DNA from: a bacterium
GTDB lineage: Bacteria; Patescibacteriota; Microgenomatia; JAMCZE01
Length of the DNA stretch: 42,369 nt
Assembly: GCA_021836035.1 (NCBI GenBank)
Contig: JAKBJL010000001.1
Coordinates: forward strand, 1 to 42,369
Direction: 5' to 3'
Position 1 is the first letter of the stretch; each line of letters opens with the position of its first letter. Below are positions 1 to 42,369 of the stretch, piece by piece. The notes beneath the pieces were generated by a model. It made no database searches, had not been told where the DNA came from, and saw only the letters and a program-made list of their open reading frames with translations. The position numbers were made by a program, and so were the translations under genes.

Positions 1-396
1 AATGTCGGCATCGGCACTACCGCCCCTGCCTCTCTTTTACACGTTGTGGGTGCTCCTGTCGGCAAAGCTTTAACTACCCTGAACTATACCGGTACCGATC
101 AGAATATTTTTGTTGCTTCCCAATCGGGACTTTTGAAATTTGCCCTTAACGGTATCGGTACTAATCCTACCGCTTCCGTTTCCGGGACTACCTCCTTTGC
201 TTCACTTCTGGTGGATAACACCACCGGAGATTTAATTACCGCCTCTTCTTCGGGGTTAACCAGATTTACGGTAACGCAAAACGGTCTGGTAAATATACCC
301 GGTTTAACCGCTTCTTCGGGAGTCTATACCGATGCTTCCAACAACCTGACCACTACCGTTCCCACTTCGGGGACTCTGGGTTTCTGGCAACGAAAC
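1..396 (+). repeat. Intragenic repeat A (also 2704-3099; first 200 bp also at 2107-2306)
   Basis: By-eye comparison: 1-396 matches 2704-3099 (offset 2703); 1-200 matches 2107-2306. Confidence 0.9.
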
Positions 397-4428: not shown

Positions 4429-4864
4429 TTTCAATTTTCAATTAATTTACCATGACGAAACTAGCAAACAAATACGATTCAGAGGAAAGAGCGGCCAGAT
4501 TCGGTGAAGAAATAATTACCTTTTGTAAAACTTCCCGGGGGGATGTGACTATCGGCACGGTAATCAACCAAATCATCCGTTCCGCAACCGGTATCAGGGC
4601 GAATCGCTGTGAAACCGGCGGGGCCGGTTCCAAAACCACTCCCAGAAATAAAAATTTTCTCCGCCGGAAGGAAGCTCGGGAAACCAAACATTGGCTAAGA
4701 GTGTTTGCCGCCTGTTACCCCGGGAAAAACGTACCCCTAGGAAACTTCTGGCCGGAAACCCGGAAATTCGTATTAATATTTCAAAAATTTCCAGCTCCCT
4801 TAAGGTTTGAAAATTGAGAGGATGAAACATTCAGTAAAAATTGAAAATTGGAAATTGAAAATTA
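4429..4864. repeat. Heptamer-periodic inverted repeat arms flanking the four-helix-bundle gene
   Basis: TTTCAATTTTCAATT (4429-4443) is complementary to AATTGAAAATTGGAA (4839-4853, 14/15). TCAATTTTCAA (4431-4441) is perfectly complementary to TTGAAAATTGA (4807-4817). Confidence 0.75.
4452..4817 (+). CDS. Four-helix-bundle protein (23S rRNA IVP / bAvd-like family), appears degenerate
   Basis: KYDSEERAARFGEEIITFCK...NQIIRSATGIRANRCE...KEARETKHWLR fits the family pattern (QxxRSxxSIGANYxE...KEARETxHWL) with several non-conservative changes. Confidence 0.8.
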   Translation: MTKLANKYDSEERAARFGEEIITFCKTSRGDVTIGTVINQIIRSATGIRANRCETGGAGSKTTPRNKNFLRRKEARETKHWLRVFAACYPGKNVPLGNFWPETRKFVLIFQKFPAPLRFEN

Positions 4865-21455: not shown

Positions 21456-22624
21456 TGTCAAGTACCCGGTTTGCTAGACAAACATTCAAGTTGTCTTTGT
21501 CCGTAACTTCGCCGGAACTTGGCTGGGGAAGTTTTTAGAGAGCGGTGAATCTTTCCTGGTTGTAGTAATTTATCGTTTGGTGAATGGCCTCAATGAGTTC
21601 TCCAACAGAGTTAAACCGGTCAAATTCCAAGCCTAAATCAGTTTTGAAATTATTAAAGAAAGATTCCTGGTAACCGTTTTCCCAGGGAGAACTCTTTTTA
21701 CTCATGGAGATTTGAATACCTAGAGACCCGGCTAGTTTTAGGTACCCCCGGCTGGCGTATTCTGCTCCCTGATCGGAGTGGATAATCTGGGGAGAATGGC
21801 CTGTATTTATCGCCGCGTCGATTAAAGCGTTACCAACTGGCTCTGTGGTGTGCTTTGCTGCTATGTCCCAACCGATAATTTCCCAGGTAAACAGATCCAT
21901 TAAAGTGGCCAGGTACCGATACTTATCTTTATATTTTGAGTAGGTAAAGTCCGAAACATACACCAGCCCCGGTCTTATCGGCCAACTATTTTTGATCAGA
22001 TTGGCAAACTTTTCCGGCGGCCGTCTTTCGTCCCGGCGTTTCCTCCATCGAGCCAGTCTTTTGTATGGTTTAACCCCGAACTTTTTCATCACCCGACGGA
22101 CAGACCGCTTTCCCACGCCTAAAGCAAGAGCGATTCGACGATGTCCATAGCTGGGATTAGCGGAAAGGACCTGGAGAATCTTTTCCCGAAGAATCTCGTC
22201 CCGGTCAAGGATCTTGTTATCCTGCCGGTACAAACCAGCCCGGGACAGACCTAAAACTGAAGCGACTAACGATCGGCTGATTCCGGCGACCTTTTCCAGG
22301 TTTAGCTCCTTAACGGCCGTTCTTTTTTTTGTTTTCTCTACCTCAAGGCTTAAAACCCCGATAATTTGTTTAAGCTGCTCGTTTTCCTTTTTTACCCGGT
22401 TATATTCCAAAAGAGAAACAGTTCCCAGAGCTTTACCTTTAAGCCAGGCATAAATTGACCGGTAGGAAACCCCATACTGTTTGGCAAGAACGATGACCGG
22501 TGTTCCGGATTTAACTTTTGCCAGAATTTCTGCCTTAACTTCTGAGGCAACATTGGTGTATTGGTCTCCTTCTAAAGATTCGTTAATTACTTGAATCTTT
22601 GTCTATTTTACCGGAGACCTGTCA
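21456..22624 (-). mobile_element. IS3-family insertion sequence (about 1.17 kb)
   Basis: TG...CA termini. 36-bp imperfect terminal inverted repeats at 21456-21491 and 22589-22624 (27/36 match). Encloses a DDE transposase. No clear target-site duplication. Confidence 0.88.
21458..22560 (-). pseudogene. IS3 transposase (OrfA and OrfB in one frame), damaged
   Basis: HTH segment (LAKQYGVSYRSIYAW) is in frame upstream of the called ORF, but no canonical in-frame start follows the AGGAG at 22566-22570. DDE motifs SDFTY, HSDQGAEY, WENGYQESF. A 1-bp loss near 21550 turns YNQERIHRSL...TGA(21458) into YNQERFTAL*. Confidence 0.82.
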
Positions 22625-22844: not shown

Positions 22845-23408
22845 ATGGGTAAGTTACTTGCGATCAGCGAACTCATCGAATTAGCAAAATTGCGCGGCAT
22901 CGACTTCGGCCCCGGCAATCCCCGAACCCATTTGGCTTATTTAACGGAAATCGGCCTGCTCCCCCCTGCTATCCGGCGCAAATCCGCCCAGGGCGGGCTA
23001 GAAGGACATTATACTGACGAAACTTTAGGAACTCTCGAGAAAATCGAAACCCTCAAAAAACAAGGACTTAGTTACGCGGATATAACGAAGCGTCTGGGGG
23101 CTAGCGACGAGCGGCTAAAAAAAACATTTTCGCCTACTTACTCTGCTAGCCCCTTGCCCTTGACTGCCAGTCCCTATATATTCTTAATCATTGGCCTGCT
23201 CCTCGGTTTTTTACTGGGTAAAGGCGACTTTAACACTCCCGGGGTTTCTCAGGCGACGGTAACTGACAGCAAGGCCGGCGGCCTAACAGCCATTGTCGTT
23301 CCCCAGGAAGCGATCACCCCTTCCGGCGGAAGTTACCTTATTTCCCTCCCCGACGATAATTTGAAGGTTAAAAATTTATATAAAATAGAAGGAATACAAA
23401 TAAAATAA
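22845..23408 (+). CDS. MerR-like HTH protein with one transmembrane helix
   Basis: ISELIELAK...LAYLTEIGLLPPAIRR...GHYTDETLGTLEKIETLKKQGLSYADI is MerR-like. Hydrophobic segment YIFLIIGLLLGFLLG follows. Confidence 0.75.
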   Translation: MGKLLAISELIELAKLRGIDFGPGNPRTHLAYLTEIGLLPPAIRRKSAQGGLEGHYTDETLGTLEKIETLKKQGLSYADITKRLGASDERLKKTFSPTYSASPLPLTASPYIFLIIGLLLGFLLGKGDFNTPGVSQATVTDSKAGGLTAIVVPQEAITPSGGSYLISLPDDNLKVKNLYKIEGIQIK

Positions 23409-28521: not shown

Positions 28522-31113
28522 TTACTCGCCTTCTTTATCCCACCATTGGCTGATCCCCTTTAGAGGGTGCATCTTTAGGTGTATTTGACGTTTACCGAGA
28601 AACCAGAAAAGAAGAGCTAAAAAAGTAGCTATCGAAACCAAATAGCCCAACTTTTCGACAGGGCCTAAGGAGTATTGAAAAGTAATTTTATCGCCCGCCT
28701 GCGCTTTTGCCAAAGGAACGTACATAAAACCTGGTCCCGCCCGGTAAATCCTTGCAGTTCGGCCATTTATCAAAGCCCCCCAATTACCGTTAGTAAGCTC
28801 CCTCAATAATACCCCGCCTCCCCGGCTGCTATCTGCCTTAATCTCGATCTCCCGGCTCTCCGGGTTTGGGAACCTGGCTTCATAATTAATCTCCCTGCCG
28901 GGCTCTCCAGTTAAAGCCAAATATATATCCGTCAATAACTCAGTTTCCTGAAGATTCTTCCGCTGGTCGAGGTAATAAGGCAAATTCATCCCTGACCAGA
29001 CAACTTTCCCTCGCTGCCAATTGCCTGCGACAACTAGTGGCCGATCTTTGCTAGTTAAAAGAATCCGGCTGTTTTTCACTAAATCGCTGCCGAGTTGCAC
29101 CTTCCAGGGGCTTTCGCCTGAAGTAGTAGACCCGAAAGGGGCGCTCAGTCCCCAATCCCCTTTCAATTCTCCTGCCGTCAGTTTTTTCACCGGAAGAAAT
29201 ACCGGCAAAGGCCTATCTCCCCAAGGATTCCCCTCAATATAAACATTGCCTCCAGCAGCAAGGTATTGTTCTATAAGTTTACTTTCCGCCATCTGATCCT
29301 TAAATTTCGCTTCATATAAAATAATGAGATTAAACTTTTTCAACTCTTCTAGATTATATCCGGATAAATTCGTGCCGCCCTGTAAAGGTAACAGCTTGGA
29401 AGAATTCACATTAGCCCGCGCTAAAGCACGAAAAATAATATCAAACTGCGCTCGCCCGCCGGTAATTACGAGGGCCGTAGGAACGGTAACTACGGAAAGA
29501 ATGGGTTCGGGTTTTAAATATTCGAAAGCTTTAAAATCCCGGTTTTCTCCCAAAGATTTAATGGGGATATTCTCTGCTGAAAACTTCTGATAATCATCAG
29601 TCTGGGAAACTAAAAATTTATCCACCGCCCACCAATCAAGTAAAAAAAGAGCCTCGTTAAGGTTATTCTTTTGGTGCCAAATAGTTTGCTGAAAATAGAA
29701 ATATGCGTTGGGGTCAGTGATGCAATTGGCGCAATAGTCCCTGGTTTGCGGTAAGTGCGGGTAAAGAATATTAAACCAAACGGCAAGACGCCCATAATCG
29801 CCAGTTCCAAAGCGATACCGCGGTGTATCTTGAAGTTGCATATTCTGGAAAAGCTCACTCCTAGATAGCGGCCGTTCAAACGGGGCGCGCGACATGGGAC
29901 TGCTTAACGGAAATTGTAAAAAAAGCCAGAGCAATAAAAGTCCCATTCCCAATAGGGAGATAACATTAAGAACCAACCGCCTACTTTCTAAAATTGTGGC
30001 ATTGATAACGCCAGCCAAAATGAGAGCAAAAAAGGCTAGGAAGGGTAAAAGCCATTTCGGAAGCCAAATCCCGCCATATATCAAACCTAAAAAGGGAAAA
30101 AGCACCATAGTGTACACCGTTAATCCCCCAACCAACATTAAGATGCCTAGAATAAACTTACCCGACAGATCCTGAGGAATCTTTCTCCGCACAAAACAAA
30201 AAGCCAACAAGATCATACTAAGCAAAAAAACAGAAACCAAGACCGGCTGTAAGGTCCAGAGGTAGGGAATCTGAAAACTATAATGATCAACAATCTGATT
30301 GCCGGGTCGAATAAGGAAAAGAAGATCTCTTAAATATGCTACGTTTCCCTGCGGGGCTAGCTTTGCTGGAGCAGAAAACGGGAAACCGGGAAATCCCAGT
30401 ATTACCGGCGGTAACATTTCAAAAGCGCTTAAGAGAAAACCGGGTATTGCTACTTTGACAAAACTGCCGATAGCGTCCCACAAATTACGATCATAGATCA
30501 GGCCCCAATAGAGCAAAACCAGCAGTAAAACAAATCCCGTTAGCCCTTGGATCGCAAAAGTCAGACCGATAAAAAACACGGTAAAAAGAAAATTGTGCCG
30601 GTTATTCTTTTCTTGTAAATAACTGATAAAGGCCCAGAGCGCCAAGGAAAAGGGCGCTAGGGCAAAAAAACGTTCATAAAGTCCGCTTTCAAAACTCCAT
30701 CCCCACAAGGCCGGAGTTGCAACCAGGCACATCGCCAGAAATAACGGCAGCAGAAATTTACCGGTCAGGCGATTAATAATCAGATACAAACCGAAAGCCA
30801 GAATCCCGGCAGAAAAAACCGTCATAAAGTTAAGGGTAAATTCTGCACTTACATGAAAAAGATTAGCGAAGGAGGCCATTACGGCGTATGGAAAAACGAC
30901 GGGATACCAGGTAAAAAATGCCATGCCCCCCGCCCAAACCGGTAACCACCAGATATGCGGCCAAAACTGCTGGATTAACTTAAGTTGGAAAATGTGGACA
31001 TTAGCATCCCAACCGCGGGGATATCCCGCCCAGCCATAAATCAGATAACTAACCAGAAAGGCAAAACCAAGGAGAAGAACCAGAGAGAAAAGGTGGGAAA
31101 AAATATTTTTCAT
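28522..31113 (-). CDS. GT-C-fold (YfhO / 6-PTPS-related membrane domain) glycosyltransferase-like protein with a large extracytoplasmic domain
   Basis: GWDANVH, WWLPVWAGG...WYP, many hydrophobic segments, C-terminal NWGALING...AGPGFMYVPL plus a final TM helix. Confidence 0.75.
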   Translation of the reverse strand: MKNIFSHLFSLVLLLGFAFLVSYLIYGWAGYPRGWDANVHIFQLKLIQQFWPHIWWLPVWAGGMAFFTWYPVVFPYAVMASFANLFHVSAEFTLNFMTVFSAGILAFGLYLIINRLTGKFLLPLFLAMCLVATPALWGWSFESGLYERFFALAPFSLALWAFISYLQEKNNRHNFLFTVFFIGLTFAIQGLTGFVLLLVLLYWGLIYDRNLWDAIGSFVKVAIPGFLLSAFEMLPPVILGFPGFPFSAPAKLAPQGNVAYLRDLLFLIRPGNQIVDHYSFQIPYLWTLQPVLVSVFLLSMILLAFCFVRRKIPQDLSGKFILGILMLVGGLTVYTMVLFPFLGLIYGGIWLPKWLLPFLAFFALILAGVINATILESRRLVLNVISLLGMGLLLLWLFLQFPLSSPMSRAPFERPLSRSELFQNMQLQDTPRYRFGTGDYGRLAVWFNILYPHLPQTRDYCANCITDPNAYFYFQQTIWHQKNNLNEALFLLDWWAVDKFLVSQTDDYQKFSAENIPIKSLGENRDFKAFEYLKPEPILSVVTVPTALVITGGRAQFDIIFRALARANVNSSKLLPLQGGTNLSGYNLEELKKFNLIILYEAKFKDQMAESKLIEQYLAAGGNVYIEGNPWGDRPLPVFLPVKKLTAGELKGDWGLSAPFGSTTSGESPWKVQLGSDLVKNSRILLTSKDRPLVVAGNWQRGKVVWSGMNLPYYLDQRKNLQETELLTDIYLALTGEPGREINYEARFPNPESREIEIKADSSRGGGVLLRELTNGNWGALINGRTARIYRAGPGFMYVPLAKAQAGDKITFQYSLGPVEKLGYLVSIATFLALLFWFLGKRQIHLKMHPLKGISQWWDKEGE

Positions 31114-31865
31114 TCTCTATTAGTTTTACCATTAGTTGTTATATGTTCCGGTAAGATAATGTGGTAAAGCCTGCGGATACGGAGAAGCTCCCGAAAAATC
31201 GCCAGCGACTTAGAAAGATTGTATTTTATCCGTGTATCGGGATTATGGGTCCAATCGGCCGGGACCTCCGCAATTTTGGCCCCCGCCCGGTGCGCCAGAA
31301 GCAAAAATTCCAAGTCAAAAAGAACGCTGTTGGTTTTTACCTTAGCAAAGGCTTTTTTCCCGATACTCGTTTTGAAAAGTTTAAAACCGCATTGGGGATC
31401 AGCTACTCCGTACGCCAGGAGAAATTTGGAAAGGGTTCCGAAAGATTTTCCCAGAAGCTCCCGGGGAAATCCCTGGCTTTGCAGGACTTTTGCTCCGTGC
31501 TTTTCCCGGGAAGCGACGCTTATATCATGGCCTTCCGTAATCGGTCCCCACAATTGATCAAAGTACCTTATGGGAACAGAAAGATCGGCATCCGTAAATA
31601 AAATATAATCCCCTTTGGCAGCTTTGACTCCGGTCCGCACCGCTGCCCCCTTACCGAGATTACAATGATGGCTAATAAGCTTAATATTCGGAGATTTTTC
31701 GGCTAACTGCCTAACCACAGCCGCGGTTTTATCTATGGAACCGTCATCAATAACTAGTATTTCATAGTTAATCTTGGCCGCTCTAAAAAATCTTCTGATT
31801 TGTTCTATCGTTCCCCCAATTCTCTCCGCTTCGTTAAATGCCGGAATGATTATAGTTAAAAGCAT
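31110..31865 (-). CDS. Polyprenol-phosphate glycosyltransferase (GT2, Dol-P-Glc/Man synthase-like)
   Basis: IIIPAFNEAERI, IDDGSIDKT, NLGKGAAV, FTDADLS, DPQCGFKLF, FDLEFL. ATG at 31865 preferred. Confidence 0.9.
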   Translation of the reverse strand: MLLTIIIPAFNEAERIGGTIEQIRRFFRAAKINYEILVIDDGSIDKTAAVVRQLAEKSPNIKLISHHCNLGKGAAVRTGVKAAKGDYILFTDADLSVPIRYFDQLWGPITEGHDISVASREKHGAKVLQSQGFPRELLGKSFGTLSKFLLAYGVADPQCGFKLFKTSIGKKAFAKVKTNSVLFDLEFLLLAHRAGAKIAEVPADWTHNPDTRIKYNLSKSLAIFRELLRIRRLYHIILPEHITTNGKTNRE

Positions 31866-33885
31866 GCCGTAGATAATATACAAAAAATATCGCAGAAAGA
31901 ATACTGACGAGAAAACTTATTAAAACATCCGTGGTGGGAGAAAAAGAAAGCTTTATTTCTGCCGCAGCGTTATGAATATTTATAAACCCGATCGGGTCCG
32001 ACTCAATCTCCAGCTGCTTTCCACTTTTATCAAAAGCCGACCAGCCCGGCTGATACGAGATTCTAACCAGGAGATCGTGGGGGTTATCCGGAGCAAAAAC
32101 CGTCATCTGCGACCAATTATTCCCCAAGGGGTAGTTGATTCTCAAAGATTCGGCACTCTCTACCCGTCCTAAATATTTTTCCAGTCTTTCTTTATCTAAA
32201 ACAATTTTACCGGATTTTAAGTTATCTGGCTGGCTAAACGTTTTAGCCCAACCCGGTTCCAAGGCCAAAGCTAAAGAGGTATTTGTTGACGGAACTTCAT
32301 AGATAATATCGCCTTCGTATTCATAAACATTTCGAAGCCAGCTGTATTTTCCCGGGTAAGTGTAATCTTTGAAGTAAACCCGGGAATCAGCGGTATTCAC
32401 GACAATATACTTAATACCCAAAGCCTGTAACCAATTAAGAGCAAGCTTCCCATCCGCTCCCTTAAGCAACTGATAGCTTATATGGGCCCACCAGGGATTT
32501 AAGCCTCCGAAATCACCGCCCTTGACCCCCCGCAGTTGGGGAACATTAGTAAAAACATTCAACCATTGCGAGTGGGTTCCCGTAGCATAGACGCGCGTCC
32601 TCGCACTATGTTCCTCTAACCAACGGGCTACCCGATACTCGCTGCTTTGAGAAATATCACTATTGGGTTTTGCCAGATTCGAGAAATTATCAATTCGGGG
32701 AAGGATAAAAATTCCGACCAGAAAAAATAATACGCCCCAGAACGCGATTCGAAGATATTTATTAATTCCCAAATCGCATTCTGTTGCTAAAAGACTGGCT
32801 AGGAAAAGCGCTGAGGAGAGATCTAGCTCGGGCCCGAAACGTTGTAGATAATCATGAGGAAGCGGAAGTAAGGAAAAATCGTAACGGTATTGTAAAAAAA
32901 TCAGGAAAAAGAAAAGCAGAGACCAAATTGCCGTGAGAACGAACGGGAAACTACGAACATTTTTTTGGATTAGATATTTAAGGGAAAAATATATGGTAAC
33001 CAAAGCCGGAAATATCACGAAAATGATAAAGACCGGGTTGCGATACATTCCCCTAACAATTCCCCCCTCCTGAGCAAAACCAATCGCCGCCTCAAGGAAA
33101 GAAGGGTTATACCAAAATAATCCCAGTCCCAAGACAAATAGGGCAACTGCGAAAGCCTGTTTGAGCGTATGGCTACCTGCTCCTCTGGCCATCTCCAGCA
33201 TCAATAAAACTAACACCATAATAACCAGCGGCATAAAAGCCGTAGAAGAAGTTAATAAAATAAACAGAAATGTCATGACACTTGAGAAAAACCAATTTTT
33301 TTGTCCCGTCTCCAGCAGCTTTTTGAAACAAAGCAAAGCTATGGGTAAAACCGCTATACCCCAGGTATGTGCCCCTTCCCCGAAGTAAATCAGAACCAGC
33401 AAGCGCCAGGGTAAAAAATTAAAACCCTGCATAAATTGGGCAATTGGAGAAATTAACAGCGTTCCTAGTGGTATAGCAGAATAAAGCAGGGCGGCAAAAA
33501 ACGCCGGTAGGTTCTTCTTGATCAGCTCTTTGGCTAAGAAGAAACAGGAAATGCTTCCCAAAGTGTAAGCTATACCTATACTTATCCGGTAAATCCCGCC
33601 GGGGTTCACCCCGGAAACAAAACTTGCCAACGCTATAGAAAACGGCACAATCGGTTGGTAGACAAGATAAAATGGAAAGCCAAAATACCAAAACGGATGC
33701 CAGATAATATGTGGGAAACTTTCTAAAATGAATTTCACGTAGGCCAAATATTGGCTTTCAATAGAAGGCATGACCGCGGTATATTCCCCCGTAAACAGCA
33801 AGCGGGTAAAAATTAGGTTCAAAACGGCAAGCAACAATACCGGCAAGCCTCCCGCTAAAATGGCTTTTATCCTGTTATTCTTCAT
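31834..33885 (-). CDS. GT-C-fold (YfhO-like) membrane glycosyltransferase-like protein
   Basis: WHPFWYFGFPFYLVYQP, GEGAH, FWYNPSF, PQLRG, LQALGIKYIVV, VRISYQPGWSA...DPIGFINI. Confidence 0.75.
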   Translation of the reverse strand: MKNNRIKAILAGGLPVLLLAVLNLIFTRLLFTGEYTAVMPSIESQYLAYVKFILESFPHIIWHPFWYFGFPFYLVYQPIVPFSIALASFVSGVNPGGIYRISIGIAYTLGSISCFFLAKELIKKNLPAFFAALLYSAIPLGTLLISPIAQFMQGFNFLPWRLLVLIYFGEGAHTWGIAVLPIALLCFKKLLETGQKNWFFSSVMTFLFILLTSSTAFMPLVIMVLVLLMLEMARGAGSHTLKQAFAVALFVLGLGLFWYNPSFLEAAIGFAQEGGIVRGMYRNPVFIIFVIFPALVTIYFSLKYLIQKNVRSFPFVLTAIWSLLFFFLIFLQYRYDFSLLPLPHDYLQRFGPELDLSSALFLASLLATECDLGINKYLRIAFWGVLFFLVGIFILPRIDNFSNLAKPNSDISQSSEYRVARWLEEHSARTRVYATGTHSQWLNVFTNVPQLRGVKGGDFGGLNPWWAHISYQLLKGADGKLALNWLQALGIKYIVVNTADSRVYFKDYTYPGKYSWLRNVYEYEGDIIYEVPSTNTSLALALEPGWAKTFSQPDNLKSGKIVLDKERLEKYLGRVESAESLRINYPLGNNWSQMTVFAPDNPHDLLVRISYQPGWSAFDKSGKQLEIESDPIGFINIHNAAAEIKLSFSPTTDVLISFLVSILSAIFFVYYLRHAFNYNHSGI

Positions 33886-35189
33886 GAGCGTAAAGATTTT
33901 CCGGTTCGGGGATAAATTTCCAGTAAAACTAACGCCGCAAGCGTTACGAAGGTCAGCAGGTCTCCGATTACGCGGGACCAGCCGTCAAAGCCGTCTTTGG
34001 CGAGCCACAAATGGCTTTTGGCGGTTTGGTCTAAACCTTGCGCCAATTCTTCTCCGGCCGGCAGCGCCGTCTTCCCGCCCATCCAGATAATCAGGGTAAT
34101 TAATACTACGGCGATAAGGAGTCCCGCCATGTTCGGCCAGGGGAAGCGGTTTTGCAGAGTATCGTTAATTTTTACCGTGGCCATCCCCGCCAAAAGCGCT
34201 AAAGCGATGCCCAGCTCCGGGTAGTAGCGCGAGGAACTGGACGAGAGAAAGCCGTGCAGGCCGGCCATGGCGATTAGAACAAAAACAATCGTCCAAAAGC
34301 TTGCCAGAAATACCGGCTGGAGGTTGGCCTTGCGGTCAAAAAGCAGGAAACCGAAAGCCCCCAGGACGGGAACGATAAAAAGCGACAGCGGAATCAGGTT
34401 CGCTAAAACCTGGCGCATTTCGCGGCCCAGCGGCCCGGAGACCATCCACCAGGCAAAGACCGGGTTATACCAAAATGCGGCCAGGGCCCCGGCGATCAGA
34501 AAAACTATCAGGAAGCGTAATAGTTTCAACCGACCGTGTCCTAAAAGCATTTCCGAAAAAGCGGCCAGCACCGCGAAAATCAAATAGGTCAGAAAGCCGA
34601 AGGGTGAAATTAAAACTATCGCCGTGCTCAAGAAGGCCGCGATTAATAAATTGTGGCGGCCGCCGAATCTTAAAAAAGCCATCAGGCTGTAAATCGCCAG
34701 GGGCATTATCCCAAGGCTTGCTATATGCGGCCCGTCATTGCCGGTAAATCCGGCTGACAACCGGCTCTTGGCAAAAAAGTATTCGGGAACAGTGGCCGTT
34801 AAAACCGCAATAATTGCCGCCAGTTTCCGGCCGGTCAAAAAGGAGATCAGGAAGTAAAAGGTTACCGGGAAAAACAGAAAGAAGAGAATCTGCACCAGCT
34901 GTACCGCATAAATAAAGGGCAGGCTGACAATGCGGGAGAGTAAGTTGGCCAGATACGGAATTGCCGGCCCGGAAAAGGGGGCAATCACCGCGGCTGTTCC
35001 CATCAGGGGAGCAGTCAGATAATAATTCAGGGCGACCAGAACAATTAGCGCAGTAAATTCGACCAGTCTCCCTCCCCATTTCCCGGGAGTAACGAGCCCC
35101 GGCAGCCTGCTTTCCCGCAGCCGCTCGCTGATCCGCCGGGCCCGTTTCGCGGCAATGGTTTCCTGAGTTTGCGGAACTATATTTTCCAT
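33882..35189 (-). CDS. Shorter GT-C-like polytopic membrane paralogue
   Basis: GNDGPH, FWYNPVF and RYYPELG parallel motifs in 31834-33885. ATG at 35189 (MENIVPQ), preceded by GGAG, preferred as start. Confidence 0.65.
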   Translation of the reverse strand: MENIVPQTQETIAAKRARRISERLRESRLPGLVTPGKWGGRLVEFTALIVLVALNYYLTAPLMGTAAVIAPFSGPAIPYLANLLSRIVSLPFIYAVQLVQILFFLFFPVTFYFLISFLTGRKLAAIIAVLTATVPEYFFAKSRLSAGFTGNDGPHIASLGIMPLAIYSLMAFLRFGGRHNLLIAAFLSTAIVLISPFGFLTYLIFAVLAAFSEMLLGHGRLKLLRFLIVFLIAGALAAFWYNPVFAWWMVSGPLGREMRQVLANLIPLSLFIVPVLGAFGFLLFDRKANLQPVFLASFWTIVFVLIAMAGLHGFLSSSSSRYYPELGIALALLAGMATVKINDTLQNRFPWPNMAGLLIAVVLITLIIWMGGKTALPAGEELAQGLDQTAKSHLWLAKDGFDGWSRVIGDLLTFVTLAALVLLEIYPRTGKSLRS

Positions 35190-36559
35190 AAAATATCTCC
35201 GTTTCCTTCCCAGACTTTTTGCCCGATATCCTCCCATTTTCGCAAATTTTTAAAGTCATGATAATACTCAAATGAGTCCGGGCCGCTGACGAGTACATAT
35301 GACACGCCAAGTTCCCGTAATGCTGCCAGGGTTTCTTCCGGGCCGCTTCCCTCGCGGATAAGATAAGCCGCCCGTGCCCAGCTTTTTTCTACCGCTGCCT
35401 CGTCCCTTCCTCCCCGGACCTGGTAAAAATCCGCCAGGGCGTTGGACCAAAAAACCGGCGTCCCCGAGAAAAATACCCGCCGGTCCCCGACAATTTCCTT
35501 GATCTCTCCCATTTCCGCTACCAGCTTAGTGGTTTCCCCTAAGTTCCTTATAACCCCCAACTCCCTTGTTGTAAAAGCGGATACAGCCACGGCCATAATT
35601 ATGGGGGCCAAAGCTAGCCGCCGCTTACCGATTGTTATGATCGCTAACCACACTCCGATCTCCAATTCTCCAAACCAGGCAATCCAATCCAGCCAAAAAT
35701 CCGGATCGGCCAAAAGGCGGAAAAGCGTCAGGGCGAGAAAACTAACCAGCCAAATCAGGGCAAACCTTCTTAGCCGGTCAGCTTTCTTATCCAAAAAAGC
35801 TGCTGCGGCAACCGCCAGTCCCACCGGAAGGATAGTCCGCAACCAGTTAAGCAGTTTCCCTGCCAGCACGATCATTCCTTCCCCGCCCAACGAGGAATTG
35901 CCTAAAATGGTCAGCCAAAAACCGGGGGTATACCAAACAGTAGATAGTGCAAGGGCAAGAGCAAAGACAACAAGCAAATGACGGACTGAAACAAAAGGTT
36001 CCCCGGTGGTTGCCAGAAGGGCGATTACTCCTATGAGCATTGTCGGCAGGATGCCCGTATTCGTCAGGAGCAAAAAAGTCAGAGCAACTACCGCGAGGAG
36101 CAAATTCCTTACCGAACGCCTGGCCAGGTAAAAATCCAGAGCGATTAGCCCCCAAGGAAAGAGAGCCAAGGCAAGCGCCGCCGACACCTCGTTTAAAGCA
36201 TACGCCGAGAGGTATTTCCAGGGCAGTACGAGGAAGATTACTATATAAAATAGTATCTTTCTGTCTCTGACTAGCTTCGGGTTTTGGTCAGCCAGCTTCG
36301 AAACCAAAATGCTCCAACCGATAGCAGAAAGAATAAAGCTTAAAGCTATTAGCCAATAGCTTAAAGCTAGGAACGCTTGCCCGGGAAATAACTTATGCAG
36401 TAAAACCAGAAGTATCGGCACCACCGGACCAATGAGATACTTAACCGGCGTCGTCCCCAGGTACCAGTAGGGATACAGGCCGGAGAAGCCATGGGCCGCA
36501 ATGAACCTGGTAAGCGCCAGCGTTACCGGTATTAATGATGTCGTCGGCGGATAAAACAT
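35177..36559 (-). CDS. GT-C-like polytopic membrane paralogue
   Basis: LYPYWYLGTTPVKYLIGPVVP, VWYTPGFW, YQVRGG, LRELGVSYVLV...YYHDFKN parallel motifs in 31834-33885. Confidence 0.7.
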   Translation of the reverse strand: MFYPPTTSLIPVTLALTRFIAAHGFSGLYPYWYLGTTPVKYLIGPVVPILLVLLHKLFPGQAFLALSYWLIALSFILSAIGWSILVSKLADQNPKLVRDRKILFYIVIFLVLPWKYLSAYALNEVSAALALALFPWGLIALDFYLARRSVRNLLLAVVALTFLLLTNTGILPTMLIGVIALLATTGEPFVSVRHLLVVFALALALSTVWYTPGFWLTILGNSSLGGEGMIVLAGKLLNWLRTILPVGLAVAAAAFLDKKADRLRRFALIWLVSFLALTLFRLLADPDFWLDWIAWFGELEIGVWLAIITIGKRRLALAPIIMAVAVSAFTTRELGVIRNLGETTKLVAEMGEIKEIVGDRRVFFSGTPVFWSNALADFYQVRGGRDEAAVEKSWARAAYLIREGSGPEETLAALRELGVSYVLVSGPDSFEYYHDFKNLRKWEDIGQKVWEGNGDILWKI

Positions 36560-36563
36560 CGGC

Positions 36564-37109
36564 TTATGTTCCCTTTTCCTCTAATACGTACCTATAGGCA
36601 AACCACCAAAAGCCAAAGAGCCAGATAATCGTCAGAAAAGCCGCGAGGTAGTCGTGGTAAATATAGCCGTAAATCGGGCGCAGATAAGCAAAAATCAAAA
36701 CGATCACCGAAAGCCGCGAGAGGTTGATCAGGAAGGTCCCCAGAAGCCCGATTAAAAAAACTTCCAGGACAGAGCCGATAGTATAGCGGCTGTCCCGCAA
36801 CCCGGCCAGAAGGGTAATAAAAAAAAGCAGGAGGCTCTGCCACCCTAAACAATTCCAGGTCATTTCCAGAAAAGTAGCGTTGACCATAAATCCGTTAGTG
36901 TAAGTAACAATTTTCAAAGGAAAAGGCGACAGCAGCAGGGCGACCATGCCTACTTCTATCGGGACGAGATATTTTTGCAGAGCATGGTAAAGAATAAACC
37001 GTTCCGCTAATTTTGTCAGAGCCTCGTTAAAAGTTAGCATCAACGGCAGCAAGGCCAAAAATATAGCCAGGAGCGCAAAGATTACGCTAAAAGTCTTTTT
37101 AGGCCGCAA
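36564..37109 (-). CDS. Exosortase/archaeosortase family transpeptidase
   Basis: Polytopic 181 aa with the catalytic-triad pattern: Cys in EMTWNCLGWQS (36849-36851), Arg in INLSRL (36714-36716), His in YHD (36654-36656). TTG start overlaps the upstream gene's end. Confidence 0.85.
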   Translation of the reverse strand: MRPKKTFSVIFALLAIFLALLPLMLTFNEALTKLAERFILYHALQKYLVPIEVGMVALLLSPFPLKIVTYTNGFMVNATFLEMTWNCLGWQSLLLFFITLLAGLRDSRYTIGSVLEVFLIGLLGTFLINLSRLSVIVLIFAYLRPIYGYIYHDYLAAFLTIIWLFGFWWFAYRYVLEEKGT

Positions 37110-40100
37110 GGGGGGTTCGCCTCCTCTCTTTCAGCCAAAGAATTGTGCCGATAAGAACCGGAGCGGCTGCCAGGAGAATGAAGCTATTTTCCGGGACGGT
37201 GATAGCCGAAGGAGGCTGAATATTACTGATATAGTTGGCAGCGGAGCCATCGTAGCCTAAATTATAGCTCCCGCCGGCACCGGCGGCGGTTCCGATGATC
37301 TCAAAATACAGACGGCAGGGCGAAGCTTCGGTACAAGTGTAGCCGGAAGTAACGCTGGCAGTCTGGGCGTGCAAACCGAGAGCAGTCGAAGGAGTATATT
37401 GGATATTACTGCTGGTTCCCAAAACCGTGTAAGTAGCTCCGGTCCCGCAAGGGTCCCCCGTCCCGCCGCTGCAATAGCCCACCACAAAATTCCAGGTAAT
37501 AGTTTTACTGCCGGTGGGTTGGAGGGCAACATAATCGTTATATGTCCAGGTCCCGGACGGAAGGGGAACCGTTCCTGTCCCGGTCGGCAGTTTTTGGGAG
37601 TACCAGTAAGCCGTTGTAGTTTTGGTTACTGTCAAGGTAGCGTTGCTTGCTCCCGACGTAGCCCCCCGCATACTTTTCCCGACATTGACCACACCGGTTG
37701 ACAAATCAAAGCCGATTTCGTCAGTAGCGCTGTTCCAGAAATAAAAATTCGTCACGGTGGAAGCATAAGTGCTGGGAGCTCCGCGGGTTAGGGAAAAAAG
37801 CGTCACCGTCAAAATAAGAACCAGGGCTAATACTGCCCTGCCTATAAAACGCCGGCCCCGGTACCTTATGGTAAAGCGGTTAAAACGGTTGTTCGCCGAA
37901 GCAAGTGCCAGATAGGAATTAACTTCATATGCCGCCGCGGGTAAAGCCGGGGTAGGGGTAGATACCCCCCGCCCGCCGAAGATCCCGGAAATCAGCCGGT
38001 AGAAACGCCCGCGGGTAAAGACGTCCGTAATCCGCCCCGTTTTCGGCGTCCGGAACCAGGGCCCTTCCCGGCTTTCCAGAAAACCTTTTACCGAAGCGTA
38101 CGCCTGAAACGGCACGACCAAATAGGAAAGGGCTATAAAGCTGGCGATACCCAGATAATCCTTTTCTTCCGATTCTTCTAGAAATAATCCCACCACATTT
38201 ACCAAGGGCAGGGAAAGCATGTTGGTTAAAACCAGGGACCATCCCCAAAGCGCCGTCCAGAAAGGCAGGCGGGCGCCGAAAACTACTTCCGAAAAAAGCC
38301 AGGATAAAGTTCCGGCCAAAAAGAAGGCCGCCTGGAGGTAGTAAGGCGCAAGATAAAAAACTTCGACCTTCTCCGGAGCCGTCAGCCTATTAGAGGCCAA
38401 AAGTTTCGCCACCATTTTGCGGATATTGTTGCTGTGCCCCTCCGCCCAGCGCATTCTTTGCCTCACCAGTCTTTGCAGGGTGGAAACGCATTCGGCCGGA
38501 GCCTGGATGTAGGGGGTATAGACCACTTTGTATCCTTTCTCATAAAGCTTCAGCGTTAACTCAAAGTCCTCGGTAATAGAGGTCCCCCAGCCGACTTCTT
38601 CGAGAGGTGCCCGCCGGATCATATAGACCGATCCGGAAATCATTTTTAGTCCGCCGTAAAGCTCGGTCCCCGCCCTTTCAATGACATAGCTGCCGGCGTA
38701 TTCGCTCCTGACCCCCCGGGTTATCCAATTCTCCGATTTGTTTAAAACGTGCCATTGATAGCCCTGGACCGCCGCTACATTAGAGCGTTGGTAATCCTCG
38801 CGCATGTTGTTTTGGACCTTAAAATACTTCAAAAAGAGGGTTAGGGTGTCCGGATACGGGACAAAATCGGCATCAAAAACGGCGATAAACTCCGTGCGCG
38901 GGTCGGTATTTTTTAAAGCCAAGCCCAAGGCGGCCCCCTTATAGCCGCTTCGGCTGGTGCGATGCAGGTGTTTAAGAACCAGACCGGGACGAACTTCTAC
39001 GCTGGACAGAGTAAAGCCGCTGCCCTCCAGGATTTGGACCCGCCCGTATTTTTCCTGGAAACGGCGGATCAGCTGCGGCGTCTCGTCGGTGGAATCATCG
39101 GCGAGCATTACTTCCAAATCCGGGTAATCTAAATTACAGGCCGCTGTGATTGCCCTTTCCACCACATTCTTTTCGTTATAAAAAGGGACCTGCACGGAAA
39201 TTTTGGGGTACTTTTCCAGGCGGACGTGTTCCAGGTTGGGCTCCAACCCCACCGGGTTCCGGCGCAGTCCTCCGTTTTGTCCCCTGTTTCTGATACCCAA
39301 GATCCAGGACAGAAAGCCGCCTCGGCCGATTAACTCATCTTCCCCCTCCGGTGCAAATCCTCCCAGGGTTTTTTGGGAAAAGGAAAGGACAATGGCTAAT
39401 GTTAAATAGTATTTAAGCGAATAGAGGAAAAAGAGGCTGCCGGTAAAAAGCGAAACAGAAGCTAAAACAAGTCCCAGGCCGGAAACAAAAGTGGCGCTTT
39501 CTAGCAGTTTGACCCAATAAATAATAGAAGCGCCGGAAGCTATAGCTATAACCAAAACCCAAATGAGGCTCCTGGTTTGCCTGCCTAGAAGAGAAATTAA
39601 AGCTTGCGGAGGGGGTGCGGGAGCGAAATTGGGAATAAACCGCTGCCAAATTTGTCCGACTTTTTCCCTGAAGGCGGGAAAGATAACCGGCTTTGGAGCT
39701 CTGCTTCCCGCTTTCTCGGCATATTGCCGGCGGTCTTCCTCCCGAGAGAGATTAGCCCGTTCCAGGGCCAGCTGCACGCCGTGATTACCGACATATCCCA
39801 GCCTGGCGGCAATTTGATGGGAAGAGAGTTCCGGCGCAGTAGCTGCCAAACCCAGGATGGCTTTGACGGCGCTTTCCCGCAATCCGCGCGGGTGCATAAC
39901 TCCCAGCGGATGTTGGTCCCCCATCGCCGGAGCCAAAGCCAAATCCTCCTGTTGGGCCGATAGGTAGCGCTTCTTCCACTTGGCAAAAGTTTTCCGCGAA
40001 ACCTTAAATTCCCGGCAAACGGCTCCGGCTTTTTTCCCGAGGATCAGCACGTCTTCGACCATCCGCTTTCGGGCATAAGCGGAAAGGCGGAGATACCCCG

Positions 40101-40512
40101 GGCACTGCCCTTCCCCCAACCCGGGGTTAATCCGGAAATTGCCGGCATAAGTGCGCCTGGCGGAAGCTAAAGTTAAGTTGCGTTTTTTTAACAACAACCA
40201 TATGCTCCGGCAGCTGAATTTTATCCCCTCTTCTTTTAGTTTGTATTCAATTTTTTGCGGACCGAATTCGGGATGGCCTACGACGATTTTTAGTATTTCA
40301 CGCTCGATATCTGCGGGCTGGCGGTATTTTATAAAATTGATCTTATCCTGTCTTTTCTGACTCTCCTCTGCCTGATTTCGGCGGTAGCTGGCGAGCCACA
40401 GGTAGAGCGTTTTCCGGGATATTCCTAATTTCGCGGCTGCCTTAGTCTTTTGTAGCTTTCCGATTGCGACCCTTTTTAATATTCCCCGTTGGCTGGAAGA
40501 AAAGGCTGGCAC
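37099..40512 (-). CDS. Fusion protein: tandem IS481-transposase-like HTH modules, cellulose-synthase-like GT2, extracellular domain and PEP-CTERM-like (VPEN) sorting tail
   Basis: HTHs: AAAKLGISRKTLYLWL, HPEFGPQKI...SCRSIWLLLKK, VCREFKVSRKTFAKWKKRY, APELSSHQIA...GNHGVQLALER. GT2 motifs: DDSTD, YKGAAL, FDADF (DAD 38866-38874), TED (38566-38574), QRMRW (38446-38460), RTPK. C-terminus: VPEN (37186-37197), hydrophobic helix, KERRR. Confidence 0.85.
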   Translation of the reverse strand: MPAFSSSQRGILKRVAIGKLQKTKAAAKLGISRKTLYLWLASYRRNQAEESQKRQDKINFIKYRQPADIEREILKIVVGHPEFGPQKIEYKLKEEGIKFSCRSIWLLLKKRNLTLASARRTYAGNFRINPGLGEGQCPGYLRLSAYARKRMVEDVLILGKKAGAVCREFKVSRKTFAKWKKRYLSAQQEDLALAPAMGDQHPLGVMHPRGLRESAVKAILGLAATAPELSSHQIAARLGYVGNHGVQLALERANLSREEDRRQYAEKAGSRAPKPVIFPAFREKVGQIWQRFIPNFAPAPPPQALISLLGRQTRSLIWVLVIAIASGASIIYWVKLLESATFVSGLGLVLASVSLFTGSLFFLYSLKYYLTLAIVLSFSQKTLGGFAPEGEDELIGRGGFLSWILGIRNRGQNGGLRRNPVGLEPNLEHVRLEKYPKISVQVPFYNEKNVVERAITAACNLDYPDLEVMLADDSTDETPQLIRRFQEKYGRVQILEGSGFTLSSVEVRPGLVLKHLHRTSRSGYKGAALGLALKNTDPRTEFIAVFDADFVPYPDTLTLFLKYFKVQNNMREDYQRSNVAAVQGYQWHVLNKSENWITRGVRSEYAGSYVIERAGTELYGGLKMISGSVYMIRRAPLEEVGWGTSITEDFELTLKLYEKGYKVVYTPYIQAPAECVSTLQRLVRQRMRWAEGHSNNIRKMVAKLLASNRLTAPEKVEVFYLAPYYLQAAFFLAGTLSWLFSEVVFGARLPFWTALWGWSLVLTNMLSLPLVNVVGLFLEESEEKDYLGIASFIALSYLVVPFQAYASVKGFLESREGPWFRTPKTGRITDVFTRGRFYRLISGIFGGRGVSTPTPALPAAAYEVNSYLALASANNRFNRFTIRYRGRRFIGRAVLALVLILTVTLFSLTRGAPSTYASTVTNFYFWNSATDEIGFDLSTGVVNVGKSMRGATSGASNATLTVTKTTTAYWYSQKLPTGTGTVPLPSGTWTYNDYVALQPTGSKTITWNFVVGYCSGGTGDPCGTGATYTVLGTSSNIQYTPSTALGLHAQTASVTSGYTCTEASPCRLYFEIIGTAAGAGGSYNLGYDGSAANYISNIQPPSAITVPENSFILLAAAPVLIGTILWLKERRRTPLAA

Positions 40513-40520
40513 ATATTTAG

Positions 40521-40547
40521 TGTTACTTATTATGGGTACTCTGTCAA
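40521..40547 (-). promoter_or_regulatory. 27-bp repeat copy 1, containing a TTGACA box; probable promoter/operator of the fusion gene
   Basis: TGTTACTTATTATGGGTACTCTGTCAA. On the - strand: TTGACA-17 bp-AACACT-6 bp-GTG start, consistent with a leaderless transcript. The -10 match is weak. Confidence 0.55.
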
Positions 40548-41443
40548 GAGGATTTTTTATCCGAAGATATATTAGTTGTCTTTATTATCTATATCGGTTT
40601 TTGCCGTTAATTGTTTTTGATAATATCTGTGTATATTTTATATTTACCTTAAATTGTGTAACCATTTTAGAATATTGGCTTTATTTTACGGTAATATTGA
40701 TTATCTACTTGAGAAATATCGTTAATTTTCACCTTTTAGAATAACTTTATAGACCCCCGTTTATTATTTATCGCTTATATATCGGCCGTCATCACAATAT
40801 TTCTTCTTTTTCCCCCCTTCTCTTTTCCTTTAAGGCACGATTGAATCGCCTTATGGGAATAATTCTTTTTATTGCGCATATATATCTTCTAAAATATTTA
40901 TTAACCATAATTCATCATGAATGATTCTTACAATTTTTGATTATCCTTAATTTATTCTTAAATAAACTATAATATCTACTTCCCCTAATTCTTACTTTTT
41001 ATGGTTTTGCCAAAAATAGCCGCCTTTTAACGGTTAATCTTACGATTTGGATCTCTAAATAAAGCTATATTATTAAACGCTGGATAATTTTCTCCTAAAT
41101 ATTCTAATTTCCCCTGTTACCTCTGATTTTTGACCATTTTGGACCCTTCAGAGGTCAGAAAAATGCCAATTTATATAGGTTGTCGCTTTATGAACGTCTT
41201 AGCTATTTTTATTAACCGCGATATTTTGGTTATTAGCTCAAAAAGCGCTTTATGTCGATTCTTAATATTCCATTAATCACGGGTATTTTCTGATTTAGGC
41301 TTCTGCTGGTTCCTTTTGCTAAAGATAACTTAAAAGTTATTTATCAAAAATACCCGGCTAAATATGGGAACCTGGCCGCTCCCCTCCACCGCGAGAATAT
41401 ATATTCTTTTGAAACATTGTGAGATATTACCTGTTAATTATTA

Positions 41444-41470
41444 TGTTACCTATTATGGATACTATGTCAA
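41444..41470 (-). promoter_or_regulatory. 27-bp repeat copy 2
   Basis: TGTTACCTATTATGGATACTATGTCAA, 24/27 identical to 40521-40547. Confidence 0.55.
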
Positions 41471-41823
41471 TTAGCAAATATAGCTACAAAAATGTGTACC
41501 TATCAACAATAAAACAAAAACGAGAATATAAATATTAGATAATCCATAAAACAAGCACAATTATGTAACCATAATTTACCTGGTAAATCCGGAGAAATAC
41601 TTACAGGATTTTCCATTCCACCCCCGATTATCCTTCTCAACACCTGGCGTTCAGGAAACAGCTAAAATATGAATAAAAAATATAATCAAAATAAATCACG
41701 GCAAATATGTAAAATATTGAAAATTACCATAAAATATATAACCTGAAGACAAAAAAACCAGAAAAAAACCGCCGGAATAAATATCAACTATAAGCTGGCC
41801 AAAATAACTTCCAAGGAAAAGGT

Positions 41824-42024
41824 TTACGGATCCCGGGGATAGTTAACCGCCGTCAGGCGGGAAAAGGTTTGCCAGCAACTCCTACCCAGAGCTATTCCGG
41901 GAGTGTAGGCACGGTGCTTCTTAAGCTTTCTTTCCTCTTGCCGATCATCCCCGCGGGTAAGAAGCGTCAAGGAAAAGACTACGCCAAAGAGATAACCTAA
42001 CGAAAATACCGACCAAATTAACAT
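41824..42024 (-). CDS. Small hypothetical membrane protein
   Basis: 66 aa; N-terminal hydrophobic helix followed by a charged tail; TTGACA upstream at 42122-42127. Confidence 0.5.
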   Translation of the reverse strand: MLIWSVFSLGYLFGVVFSLTLLTRGDDRQEERKLKKHRAYTPGIALGRSCWQTFSRLTAVNYPRDP

Positions 42025-42229
42025 AATAAAACGGGCAAGCGATTAAAGACGTCCGCCGGAAGGATTAACCTTTGAAGCAGCCTGAGAACGTTAAGGAGCT
42101 TTTACTGCGTGAAAATAGGCTTGTCAAGAGGCGCTAAGGGCAATTATGTAGCCCGAACACGTAAGGAGGCGATTTGAATTGAAAAAATCCACTAGAAAAA
42201 TGCAAAAAAAACATAGTAGAATAAGGGGT

Positions 42230-42369
42230 ATGCCCGAACGCTATACATTCGCAAGTGTTTTTAATTACGATGCTACACTTGGAACGATAACACTAAACTT
42301 CCCCATTATCATAAATGGTCTGAGATACAATCAAGGGGCCGTGGTTACTAGATATACCCCATTTATAGG
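42230..42369 (+). CDS. Hypothetical protein, 3'-truncated by the window edge
   Basis: ATG-started frame (MPERYTFASVFNYDATLGTI...) open to the end. TAGAAT -10-like box at 42217-42222. Confidence 0.45.
   Translation, partial: MPERYTFASVFNYDATLGTITLNFPIIINGLRYNQGAVVTRYTPFI

Follow-up and report, generated by a model that had tools for sequence, protein, structure and literature searches.

Why should an enzyme that builds a polysaccharide carry a transposase-type DNA-binding region at its N-terminus? The question is raised by a gene on contig JAKBJL010000001.1 (NCBI GenBank assembly GCA_021836035.1) from a bacterium of the Patescibacteriota (GTDB lineage Microgenomatia; JAMCZE01), of which positions 1 to 42,369 were analysed (hereafter, the window). 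The genome measures 1.06 Mb with a completeness of 98%. The gene (37099..40512, minus strand) was defined by its open reading frame (ORF) and translation together with Pfam and NCBIfam matches, and encodes a protein of 1137 residues in which a tandem helix-turn-helix (HTH) head is followed by two transmembrane helices, a processive synthase domain of glycosyltransferase family 2 (GT2), a transmembrane bundle, a beta-rich outer domain and a C-terminal sorting tag. This architecture is kept across the 10 synthase sequences of alignment A1, on which statements about invariant columns are based unless they refer to alignment A2, comprising 42 heads (that of the window and 41 homologous heads from related loci). 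An earlier reading, made from the sequence only, had singled out 39715–40512, corresponding to residues 1–266 of the synthase, as a domesticated and duplicated transposase module that might act as a membrane-tethered transcription factor or DNA tether. The answer suggested by the evidence presented here is that the head may read a site within the promoter of its own gene.

Residues 1–270 comprise two bipartite HTH modules in tandem. The recognition-helix motif S-R-K-T...W can be read twice in the translation, at about residues 31–43 and 171–183, and after each instance a P-E motif is found in a second helical unit (about residues 73–88 and 219–234). Module 1 (40141..40500, minus strand; residues ~5–124) consists of an HTH (residues 6–45), a long linker helix and a second helical subdomain (residues 66–124). 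Module 2 (39700..40098, minus strand; residues ~139–271) is membrane-proximal and better conserved, contains most of the invariant head columns of A1, and is the one kept in relatives with a single module. Four Pfam families (HTH_23, HTH_28, HTH_Tnp_1 and HTH_32) match the first ~250 residues over two stretches apiece, and the best NCBIfam match of the synthase outside the glycosyltransferases is the IS481 transposase family NF033577 (E-value 1.1e-22, two stretches). When the halves are scanned alone, residues 1–133 align with positions 4–110 of the 284 in this profile (E-value 3.2e-12) and residues 134–300 with positions 2–117 (E-value 4.7e-12), and the IS630 and IS3 profiles score below IS481 for both. 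Judged by these scores of about 1e-12 per half against a curated profile, and by the 373 library matches described below, the two-module pattern is more than chance. Compared with each other, the halves are just 21% identical over 98 columns (E-value 4e-4, for a single comparison), and the duplication is therefore old.

The resemblance to transposases is confined to their DNA-binding part. Scans of the synthase against Pfam and NCBIfam revealed neither an rve/DDE core nor a remnant of one, and the whole-protein score against the IS481 profile amounts to 80.8 bits versus a cut-off of 224, covering the N-terminal part of the profile only. A search of the PDB with a profile of A2 returned the RED subdomain of Sleeping Beauty as the best sequence match (E-value 1.4e-4). 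In either module, 90% or more of the A2 sequences have the S-R of the recognition helix, and all 42 heads are strongly basic, with isoelectric points of 9.5–11.4 and net charges of +13 to +47 (+31 for the head in the window). We infer that the head originated from a transposase, and its distribution, as opposed to a rooted phylogeny, suggests that it has been domesticated. The head is single-copy in the genome. A repeat scan confined to the upstream region returned weak inverted pairs (up to 24 nt, at most 75% complementary).

An AlphaFold2 model of the 290-residue head, calculated from A2, has a mean predicted local distance difference test score (pLDDT) of 91.5 and is composed of four three-helix HTH units (residues 6–45, 66–124, 145–188 and 213–269). 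The helices of module 1 span residues 6–17, 22–29, 33–62, 66–79, 85–94, 101–110 and 116–123, with pLDDT means of 80–98 for blocks of 10 residues, and those of module 2 run from residues 145–156 to 258–269. The sole stretch of low confidence is the linker after residue 270 (pLDDT 55–57 over residues 271–290). The better of the partial Foldseek matches include the paired domains of Pax5 and Pax6, SETMAR on its inverted repeat, TnsB, Tc3 and CENP-B. Single HTH DNA-binding domains were returned by a VIA search, along with Tc3 (Z-score 5.9 over 98 residues) and, over a whole module, IstA and TnsABCD. Look-alikes in the ESM Atlas are clusters of 137–179 residues, mostly named as transposases or HTH proteins, with three named hypothetical. 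Each unit is thus modelled as an HTH of DNA-binding type, and nothing beyond this is claimed from the prediction.

The head is connected to the enzyme by a linker of low model confidence (39583..39699, minus strand; residues ~272–310) that contains a conserved proline-rich stretch at residues ~296–303, where at least 90% of the 10 sequences of A1 have A297 and P300. Two hydrophobic helices follow before the GT2 domain (39379..39582, minus strand; residues 311–339 and 342–378), for which hydropathy peaks lie at residues 316–334, 345–363 and 360–378. An AlphaFold2 prediction of the full-length protein from 10 sequences, used for secondary structure only on account of its mean pLDDT of 52.6, also shows two long helices in this region. 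The head would be located in the cytoplasm, on the same side of the membrane as the GT2 domain, because the latter uses nucleotide sugars and because a head of 300 residues without a signal peptide would not be exportable. In these respects the sequence-only reading is borne out: it had described two consecutive bipartite HTH patterns of IS481 type in the first ~265 residues, without a DDE domain and joined through a proline-rich linker to transmembrane helices and a GT2 domain (matched by Pfam from residue 436), and the doubt that it raised itself, that the region might not model as HTHs, is dispelled by the predicted structure.

The fusion is not peculiar to this genome. A word-indexed search with residues 1–290, limited to proteins of 625–1990 residues, gave 11 hits including the window's own protein (P0003); all 11 carry a GT2 domain, and the other ten share 29–44% identity with the query over the head. 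When 1.84 billion cluster representatives were searched exhaustively with phmmer, the same 290-residue region gave 373 matches at E-values up to 1e-3 and 154 at up to 1e-10. We inspected 157 proteins (147 that were new among the best 150 phmmer matches and 10 from the length-restricted search), and a synthase core is present in 107 of these head-bearing proteins. Most of the other 50 are short: 46 have 101–368 residues, too few to accommodate a DDE core after the modules, and many stop within the first membrane helix or shortly beyond it. The remaining four (P0104, P0135, P0153 and P0156; 418–611 residues) have a tandem head, then one or two hydrophobic segments and a C-terminal part of another kind, in which neither an rve hit nor a GT2 domain was found.

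A scan of one genome per species identified 318 relatives, from which 74 loci were kept by their likeness to the query including the head, a choice that biases the following module shares upward. Most of these loci are labelled as Patescibacteria (Woese-, Chisholm-, Davies-, Curtiss- and Gottesmanbacteria), and several bear other, automatically assigned labels. Together with the window they contain 85 synthase ORFs, of which 11 are cut at the 5' end by the end of a contig, leaving 74 with an intact N-terminus. At least one module is present in 65 of the 74: two full modules in 43, one full module with the first HTH only of another in 15, and one in seven; the remaining nine have none, although L044:7750 and L027:6001, both among the nine, may be fragments of genes. 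At the locus of the former the synthase frame is broken by a single stop codon (L044, 5635–9087, read as 5635–7746 and then 7750–9087). In a quick tree of the modules, with weak support, grouping is mostly by position (shuffles gave about 34.5 label changes, the tree 11 and 16), and recent re-duplications are apparent in L018 and in L020/L036. The two head modules of L018 (5533–15126) are near-identical and lie unusually far apart. Single modules cluster with second modules, and the membrane-proximal module is therefore the constant one. Two relatives without a transposase-type head, L045 and L051, have an HTH of MerR/HTH_17 type directly before the first membrane helix. Within a sample of the class, 39 of 301 genomes, including this one and the unpublished G068, contain a match at an E-value up to 1e-10, the weakest of these lying partly in frames of 300–400 residues that may be true transposases. 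Within the organism's own family a match, which is weak, was found in one of 15 other genomes.

For the six closest pairs, picked by BLAST, the ratio of nonsynonymous to synonymous substitution rates (dN/dS) of the head is 0.06–0.24, compared with 0.03–0.10 for the glycosyltransferase core in five pairs, the sixth being saturated; as dS in these pairs is 0.7–3.4, the values are rough. Across diverged homologues the heads share 20–44% identity. The head is thus neither absent nor decaying in close homologues, as a recent accidental fusion would have left it, and the fusion is old and under purifying selection.

What the head might bind is suggested by the DNA in front of the gene. A promoter-like element, TTGACA-N16-TAACAC, is located at 40520..40547 on the minus strand and ends 7 nt before the GTG start codon; it holds a conserved motif that scores 23.3 bits with a position weight matrix built from sites of many species. 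A second copy (41443..41470, minus strand; 24.7 bits) lies 923 nt further upstream and is identical at 24 of 27 bases (89%). These are the two copies in the genome, both upstream of the synthase gene, and the only sites scoring above 20 bits. The motif core is a rigid 20 bp, AGTWCCCAT-N4-GKTAACA, represented at this promoter by a GTACCCAT half and a GTAACA half (region 40515–40555), and it occupies both spacer and -10 region of the promoter-like element. The halves are kept at a fixed distance from each other, and the -35 hexamer slides by 0–3 nt relative to the core. A two-part site of 20 bp with fixed spacing would fit a single bipartite HTH protein reading both halves.

In many species the motif is found 6–61 nt before the start codon of the homologous genes. 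For cross-validation the loci were split by locus number, the matrix being trained on one half and tested on the other: scores of at least 15 bits were reached upstream of 15/34 and 10/31 held-out head-bearing genes, compared with 1/288 and 0/215 other ORFs of at least 100 residues at the same loci (Mann-Whitney p 2e-14 and 8e-9, values that are overstated since related genes are not independent). Over both strands of all 74 loci (1.49 Mb) there are 43 hits at or above 15 bits, of which 32 are found no more than 250 nt upstream of such genes and the other 11 at other positions, versus seven in reversed controls, the matrix having been trained on the same data that were scanned. None of eight headless relatives reaches 15 bits upstream (best score 12.4). 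In genome G301, of about 1 Mb, the only exact match to the strict pattern sits 8 nt before a homologue. For three ortholog pairs with a head dS of 0.7–1.0, a block of 32–35 nt around the motif is identical or nearly so and the flanks differ; in the same footprint comparison, of five pairs, other conserved blocks are present too, and a fourth, closer pair is conserved throughout. From the cross-validation, the headless relatives, G301 and the ortholog blocks, the motif is therefore judged to have a function, to belong specifically to these genes and to go with the presence of the head. That it represents a general promoter of the organism was rejected for this genome, in view of the two sites above 20 bits; 14 loose matches to TTGACN-N15-18-TWACA occur elsewhere in the genome, all of them without the spacer element.

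The second copy has no ORF of 50 or more residues behind it. Second copies without a gene behind them are also seen upstream in L001 and L002, and divergent ones, again with no substantial ORF behind, in L048, L054, L056 and L065. When the 0.9 kb that separates the two copies in the window was aligned with L001 and L002, no convincing conservation emerged, and an Rfam search of 40400–42369 gave two sub-threshold matches only. The 1.7 kb upstream of the synthase gene (40513–42178) has 74 residues as its longest ORF.

Taken together, these results can be accommodated in the following scheme. Two transposase-type bipartite (paired-like) HTH modules may have been recruited long ago, in Patescibacteria, as the permanent cytoplasmic head of a BcsA-like synthase, to which they would be tethered by the flexible proline-rich linker and two membrane helices. 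The target of the head, rather than of another factor, would be the AGTWCCCAT-N4-GKTAACA site in the spacer and -10 region of its own promoter. A membrane enzyme would in this way regulate its own operon, encoding synthase and exosortase, most simply through negative feedback, repression being the simplest guess for a site that extends over both spacer and -10 region; once bound, the enzyme would keep its locus at the membrane as well. We consider the odds evenly balanced for the central proposition, namely that the head binds the promoter-embedded site sequence-specifically and thereby governs the synthase-exosortase operon.

Several observations weigh against this scheme. The fold matches are weak: Foldseek found no match for the 290-residue head model in the PDB at an E-value of 1e-3 or lower, and the wide VIA search yielded no Z-score of 8 or more, the best being 7.2, a level that is common for helical models. 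Only about 40% of held-out upstream regions reach the motif threshold; module 1 varies and, in 22 of 74 relatives, is absent in part or altogether; and the family has a patchy distribution, with matches in 39 of the 301 sampled genomes of the class. The motif coincides in part with promoter elements and could be recognised by RNA polymerase carrying some sigma factor or by a different regulator. For a polytopic membrane protein, the promoter is within reach only when the locus is at the membrane. Moreover, shared descent confounds the joint occurrence of head and motif, as the headless relatives may belong to only a few clades. The role of transcription factor or DNA tether put forward in the sequence-only reading is thus supported in part: the head is of transposase type, duplicated, without a DDE core, selected and membrane-tethered, and the regulatory or tethering function itself is suggested indirectly by the motif, the charge and the relatives with a MerR-type HTH in the same position.

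Among other explanations, the one that survives best is that the head no longer reads DNA and has become a protein-protein module, docking on the GT2 domain for autoinhibition or activation, or oligomerising the synthase, with the motif being read by RNA polymerase or another regulator. HTH folds are indeed reused for protein binding, as in sigma region 4 with anti-sigma factors, which is present among the VIA fold matches, and both the -35-like and -10-like hexamers within the motif and the variable number of modules would be in keeping with such a role. A docking module would, however, leave unexplained that 42 of 42 heads are strongly basic, that the recognition-helix S-R is retained at the level given above in both modules, that an unrelated DNA-binding HTH of MerR type occupies the same slot in two relatives, and that the motif is specific to head-bearing genes. 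On balance we regard docking as unlikely.

Less likely still is a head that binds DNA without regulating genes, tethering the nucleoid or DNA to the synthase for enzyme placement, chromosome-envelope coupling or DNA-gated catalysis. The very high positive charge, the four HTH units in a row and the second motif copies without a gene behind them, in the window as in L001 and L002 and in divergent form at four further loci, would all suit a tether. The motif is, however, held at a fixed place 6–61 nt before the start codon in many species, and just two sites in this genome are what would be expected of an operator and not of a general tether. Practically no credence remains for a recent accident in which an IS481-like element inserted before a synthase gene and left a neutral or decaying HTH region: although the best profile match is a transposase family and an IS3-family ORF lies 15 kb away in the window, recent fusion or decay is ruled out by the presence of the fusion in hundreds of diverged homologues (20–44% head identity), by a dN/dS of 0.06–0.24 and by the lack of a DDE core or remnant, the IS3 ORF being of another family.

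The enzyme to which the head is attached is a GT2 synthase. The catalytic domain (38353..39240, minus strand; residues ~425–720) contains DDS, DAD, TED and QRMRW motifs, and the corresponding columns D473, D547/D549, T647–D649 and Q685–W689 are invariant. Three Pfam GT2 families match above their cut-offs and together span residues 436–757, among them Glyco_tranf_2_3 (residues 436–691) and Glyco_trans_2_3 (residues 543–757). The best solved relative of the domain is BcsA (E-value 1.6e-11). Scores against NCBIfam equivalogs are far under their cut-offs, with 91.1 versus 422 bits for PgaC, 81.8 versus 699 for CelA and 35 versus 550 for NodC. From the GT2 motifs, the BcsA match and the scores under every equivalog cut-off, the protein is therefore assigned as a processive-type synthase outside the named equivalogs. 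A C-terminal membrane region follows (37786..38346, minus strand; residues ~723–909), as indicated by hydropathy and by helices in the low-confidence model, and it includes an invariant F-R-T-P-K-T-G stretch at residues 820–826, which may resemble the BcsA gating loop. Hydrophobic helices are thus found both before and after the GT2 domain.

Beyond the membrane region lies a variable beta-rich domain, predicted to be outside the membrane (37213..37785, minus strand; residues ~910–1100), with strands at residues 957–1086 in a low-confidence model. It could not be aligned among the homologues of A1 and has no match in Pfam or NCBIfam. The protein ends in a tail resembling a sorting signal (37102..37197, minus strand; residues 1106–1137), in which V-P-E is followed by a hydrophobic helix and a basic cluster. 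The tail is present in all 10 aligned homologues, with P1107 in at least 90% and E1108 invariant, and it is unique among the six-frame ORFs of the genome (hidden Markov model E-value 1.2e-10, next best 0.12). No NCBIfam tag model matches it, and it is therefore taken as an undescribed type of tag. Overlapping the stop codon of the synthase gene is a gene for a mini-exosortase of 181 residues (36564..37109, minus strand; TIGR04178, 29.3 bits against a cut-off of 23), which is the only copy in the genome and is matched by no specific exosortase subtype in NCBIfam. At 45 related loci with enough downstream DNA, exosortase relatives start between -200 and +150 nt from the synthase stop codon in 24 and lie within 3.5 kb in nine more; none was found in 12. 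As the genome holds one tag and one exosortase, the two look like a dedicated one-to-one sorting pair, with the tag on the synthase itself.

Two further genes on the same strand, at 35177–36559 and 31834–33885, encode polytopic membrane proteins of 460 and 683 residues with 8–9 hydrophobic segments. Neither belongs to a Pfam or NCBIfam family. Relatives of each are found in 27 of the 74 related loci, and both proteins are therefore probably part of the same system as the synthase. A small GT2 gene (31110–31883) and two methyltransferase genes come after them. The G+C content is 52.6% for the synthase gene, 45.7% for the genome and 34% for the 1.7-kb upstream spacer, and arrival of the cassette by horizontal transfer is possible.

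Elsewhere in the window, three giant ORFs are read from the plus strand (46–4407, 4807–12330 and 12669–21389). A Peptidase_S74 (endosialidase-chaperone) domain is found in one of them; the others, of 2507 and 2906 residues, are paralogous, each with seven LamG-type repeats, and share identical stretches (the same 22-mer with its flanks at 9875 and 17758). The IS3-family transposase ORF (21535–22410, minus strand) covers profile positions 68–356 of 369 only and probably represents the catalytic frame of an IS3 element with two frames. A link between the head and this ORF was considered and rejected, as the ORF is of another family and matches the catalytic part of the profiles only. A small ORF with a MerR-type HTH (22845–23408, plus strand) adjoins it. 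A sub-threshold match to the c-di-AMP riboswitch (42044–42186, plus strand; 17.8 bits against a gathering threshold of 38, E-value 0.37), before an ORF at 42179, is probably due to chance.

How the synthase relates to known systems can be considered part by part. Its head shares with IS481 transposases (NF033577) the combination of a bipartite HTH with a second helical subdomain and the same conserved recognition-helix motif, and with the PAI and RED domains of IS630/Tc1-mariner elements the sequence match to the Sleeping Beauty RED and the partial fold matches to Tc3 and SETMAR. In contrast to those transposases, it has no DDE core, consists of two tandem modules, is fused to membrane helices and an enzyme, and is single-copy; since the defining catalytic feature is absent, the head is not a transposase. 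The enzyme resembles BcsA, PgaC/IcaA and NodC in its GT2 domain with D, DxD, TED and QxxRW motifs and in the flanking membrane helices, and differs from them in having a DNA-binding head instead of PilZ or another known regulatory module, and in the added surface domain and sorting tag.

Two further systems are alike in logic only. PutA is a trigger enzyme, a membrane-associating proline dehydrogenase whose N-terminal ribbon-helix-helix DNA-binding domain represses its own operon. The synthase would share with it a built-in DNA-binding domain that regulates the enzyme's own genes, together with membrane association; there is, however, no homology, and PutA, a peripheral protein, moves back and forth between DNA and membrane, whereas the synthase is integral. 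ToxR and CadC consist of an OmpR-type winged helix, a single membrane helix and a periplasmic sensor, with no enzyme domain. Like them, the synthase has a DNA-binding domain at its N-terminus, presumably in the cytoplasm, that transmembrane helices keep at the membrane, and the four proteins P0104, P0135, P0153 and P0156, in which a tandem head and hydrophobic segments precede another C-terminus, resemble this type as well; the synthase differs in its transposase-type head and in the two helices ahead of a GT2 enzyme domain.

For the tag and the exosortase the comparison is with PEP-CTERM/exosortase systems (Haft 2006, PMC1569441). These systems, and the glycosyltransferases associated with XrtG and XrtP according to their NCBIfam names, have in common with the present locus a tag built of motif, helix and basic cluster, an adjoining exosortase gene and a link to polysaccharide. 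At this locus, by contrast, the tag is on the synthase itself, one tag is present for one exosortase, and the exosortase has just 181 residues. Full-text literature searches, outside which lay most subscription journals and the supplements of bioRxiv, returned, among the matches listed, no account of a DNA-binding head on a polysaccharide synthase; one of them yielded general papers on exosortases only.

With 318 relatives in species-representative genomes the family is widespread, and each member unites four functions in a single polypeptide, which binds DNA, makes a polymer, presents a variable surface domain and carries a sorting tag. The Patescibacteria are an abundant and uncultured group in which gene regulation and envelope building are poorly understood. 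If the head binds the candidate operator, the protein would be the first known example of a polysaccharide synthase that controls itself by binding DNA directly, and bacteria would offer a clear instance of host genes being controlled by a recruited transposase DNA-binding domain. A ready protein-DNA pair would then also be at hand, which can be tested in vitro without culturing the organism. A bolder extension, which we hold to be somewhat improbable, is that the synthase acts as its own transcription factor, with the DNA-binding state of the head coupled to the state of the enzyme through substrate supply, polymer translocation or the processing of the protein's own surface cargo by the exosortase. 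Were this true, the two copies of the motif would let the two modules loop DNA, and surface assembly would feed back directly on the promoter without a soluble regulator, a compact control circuit that would be suited to ultra-small cells with few regulators.

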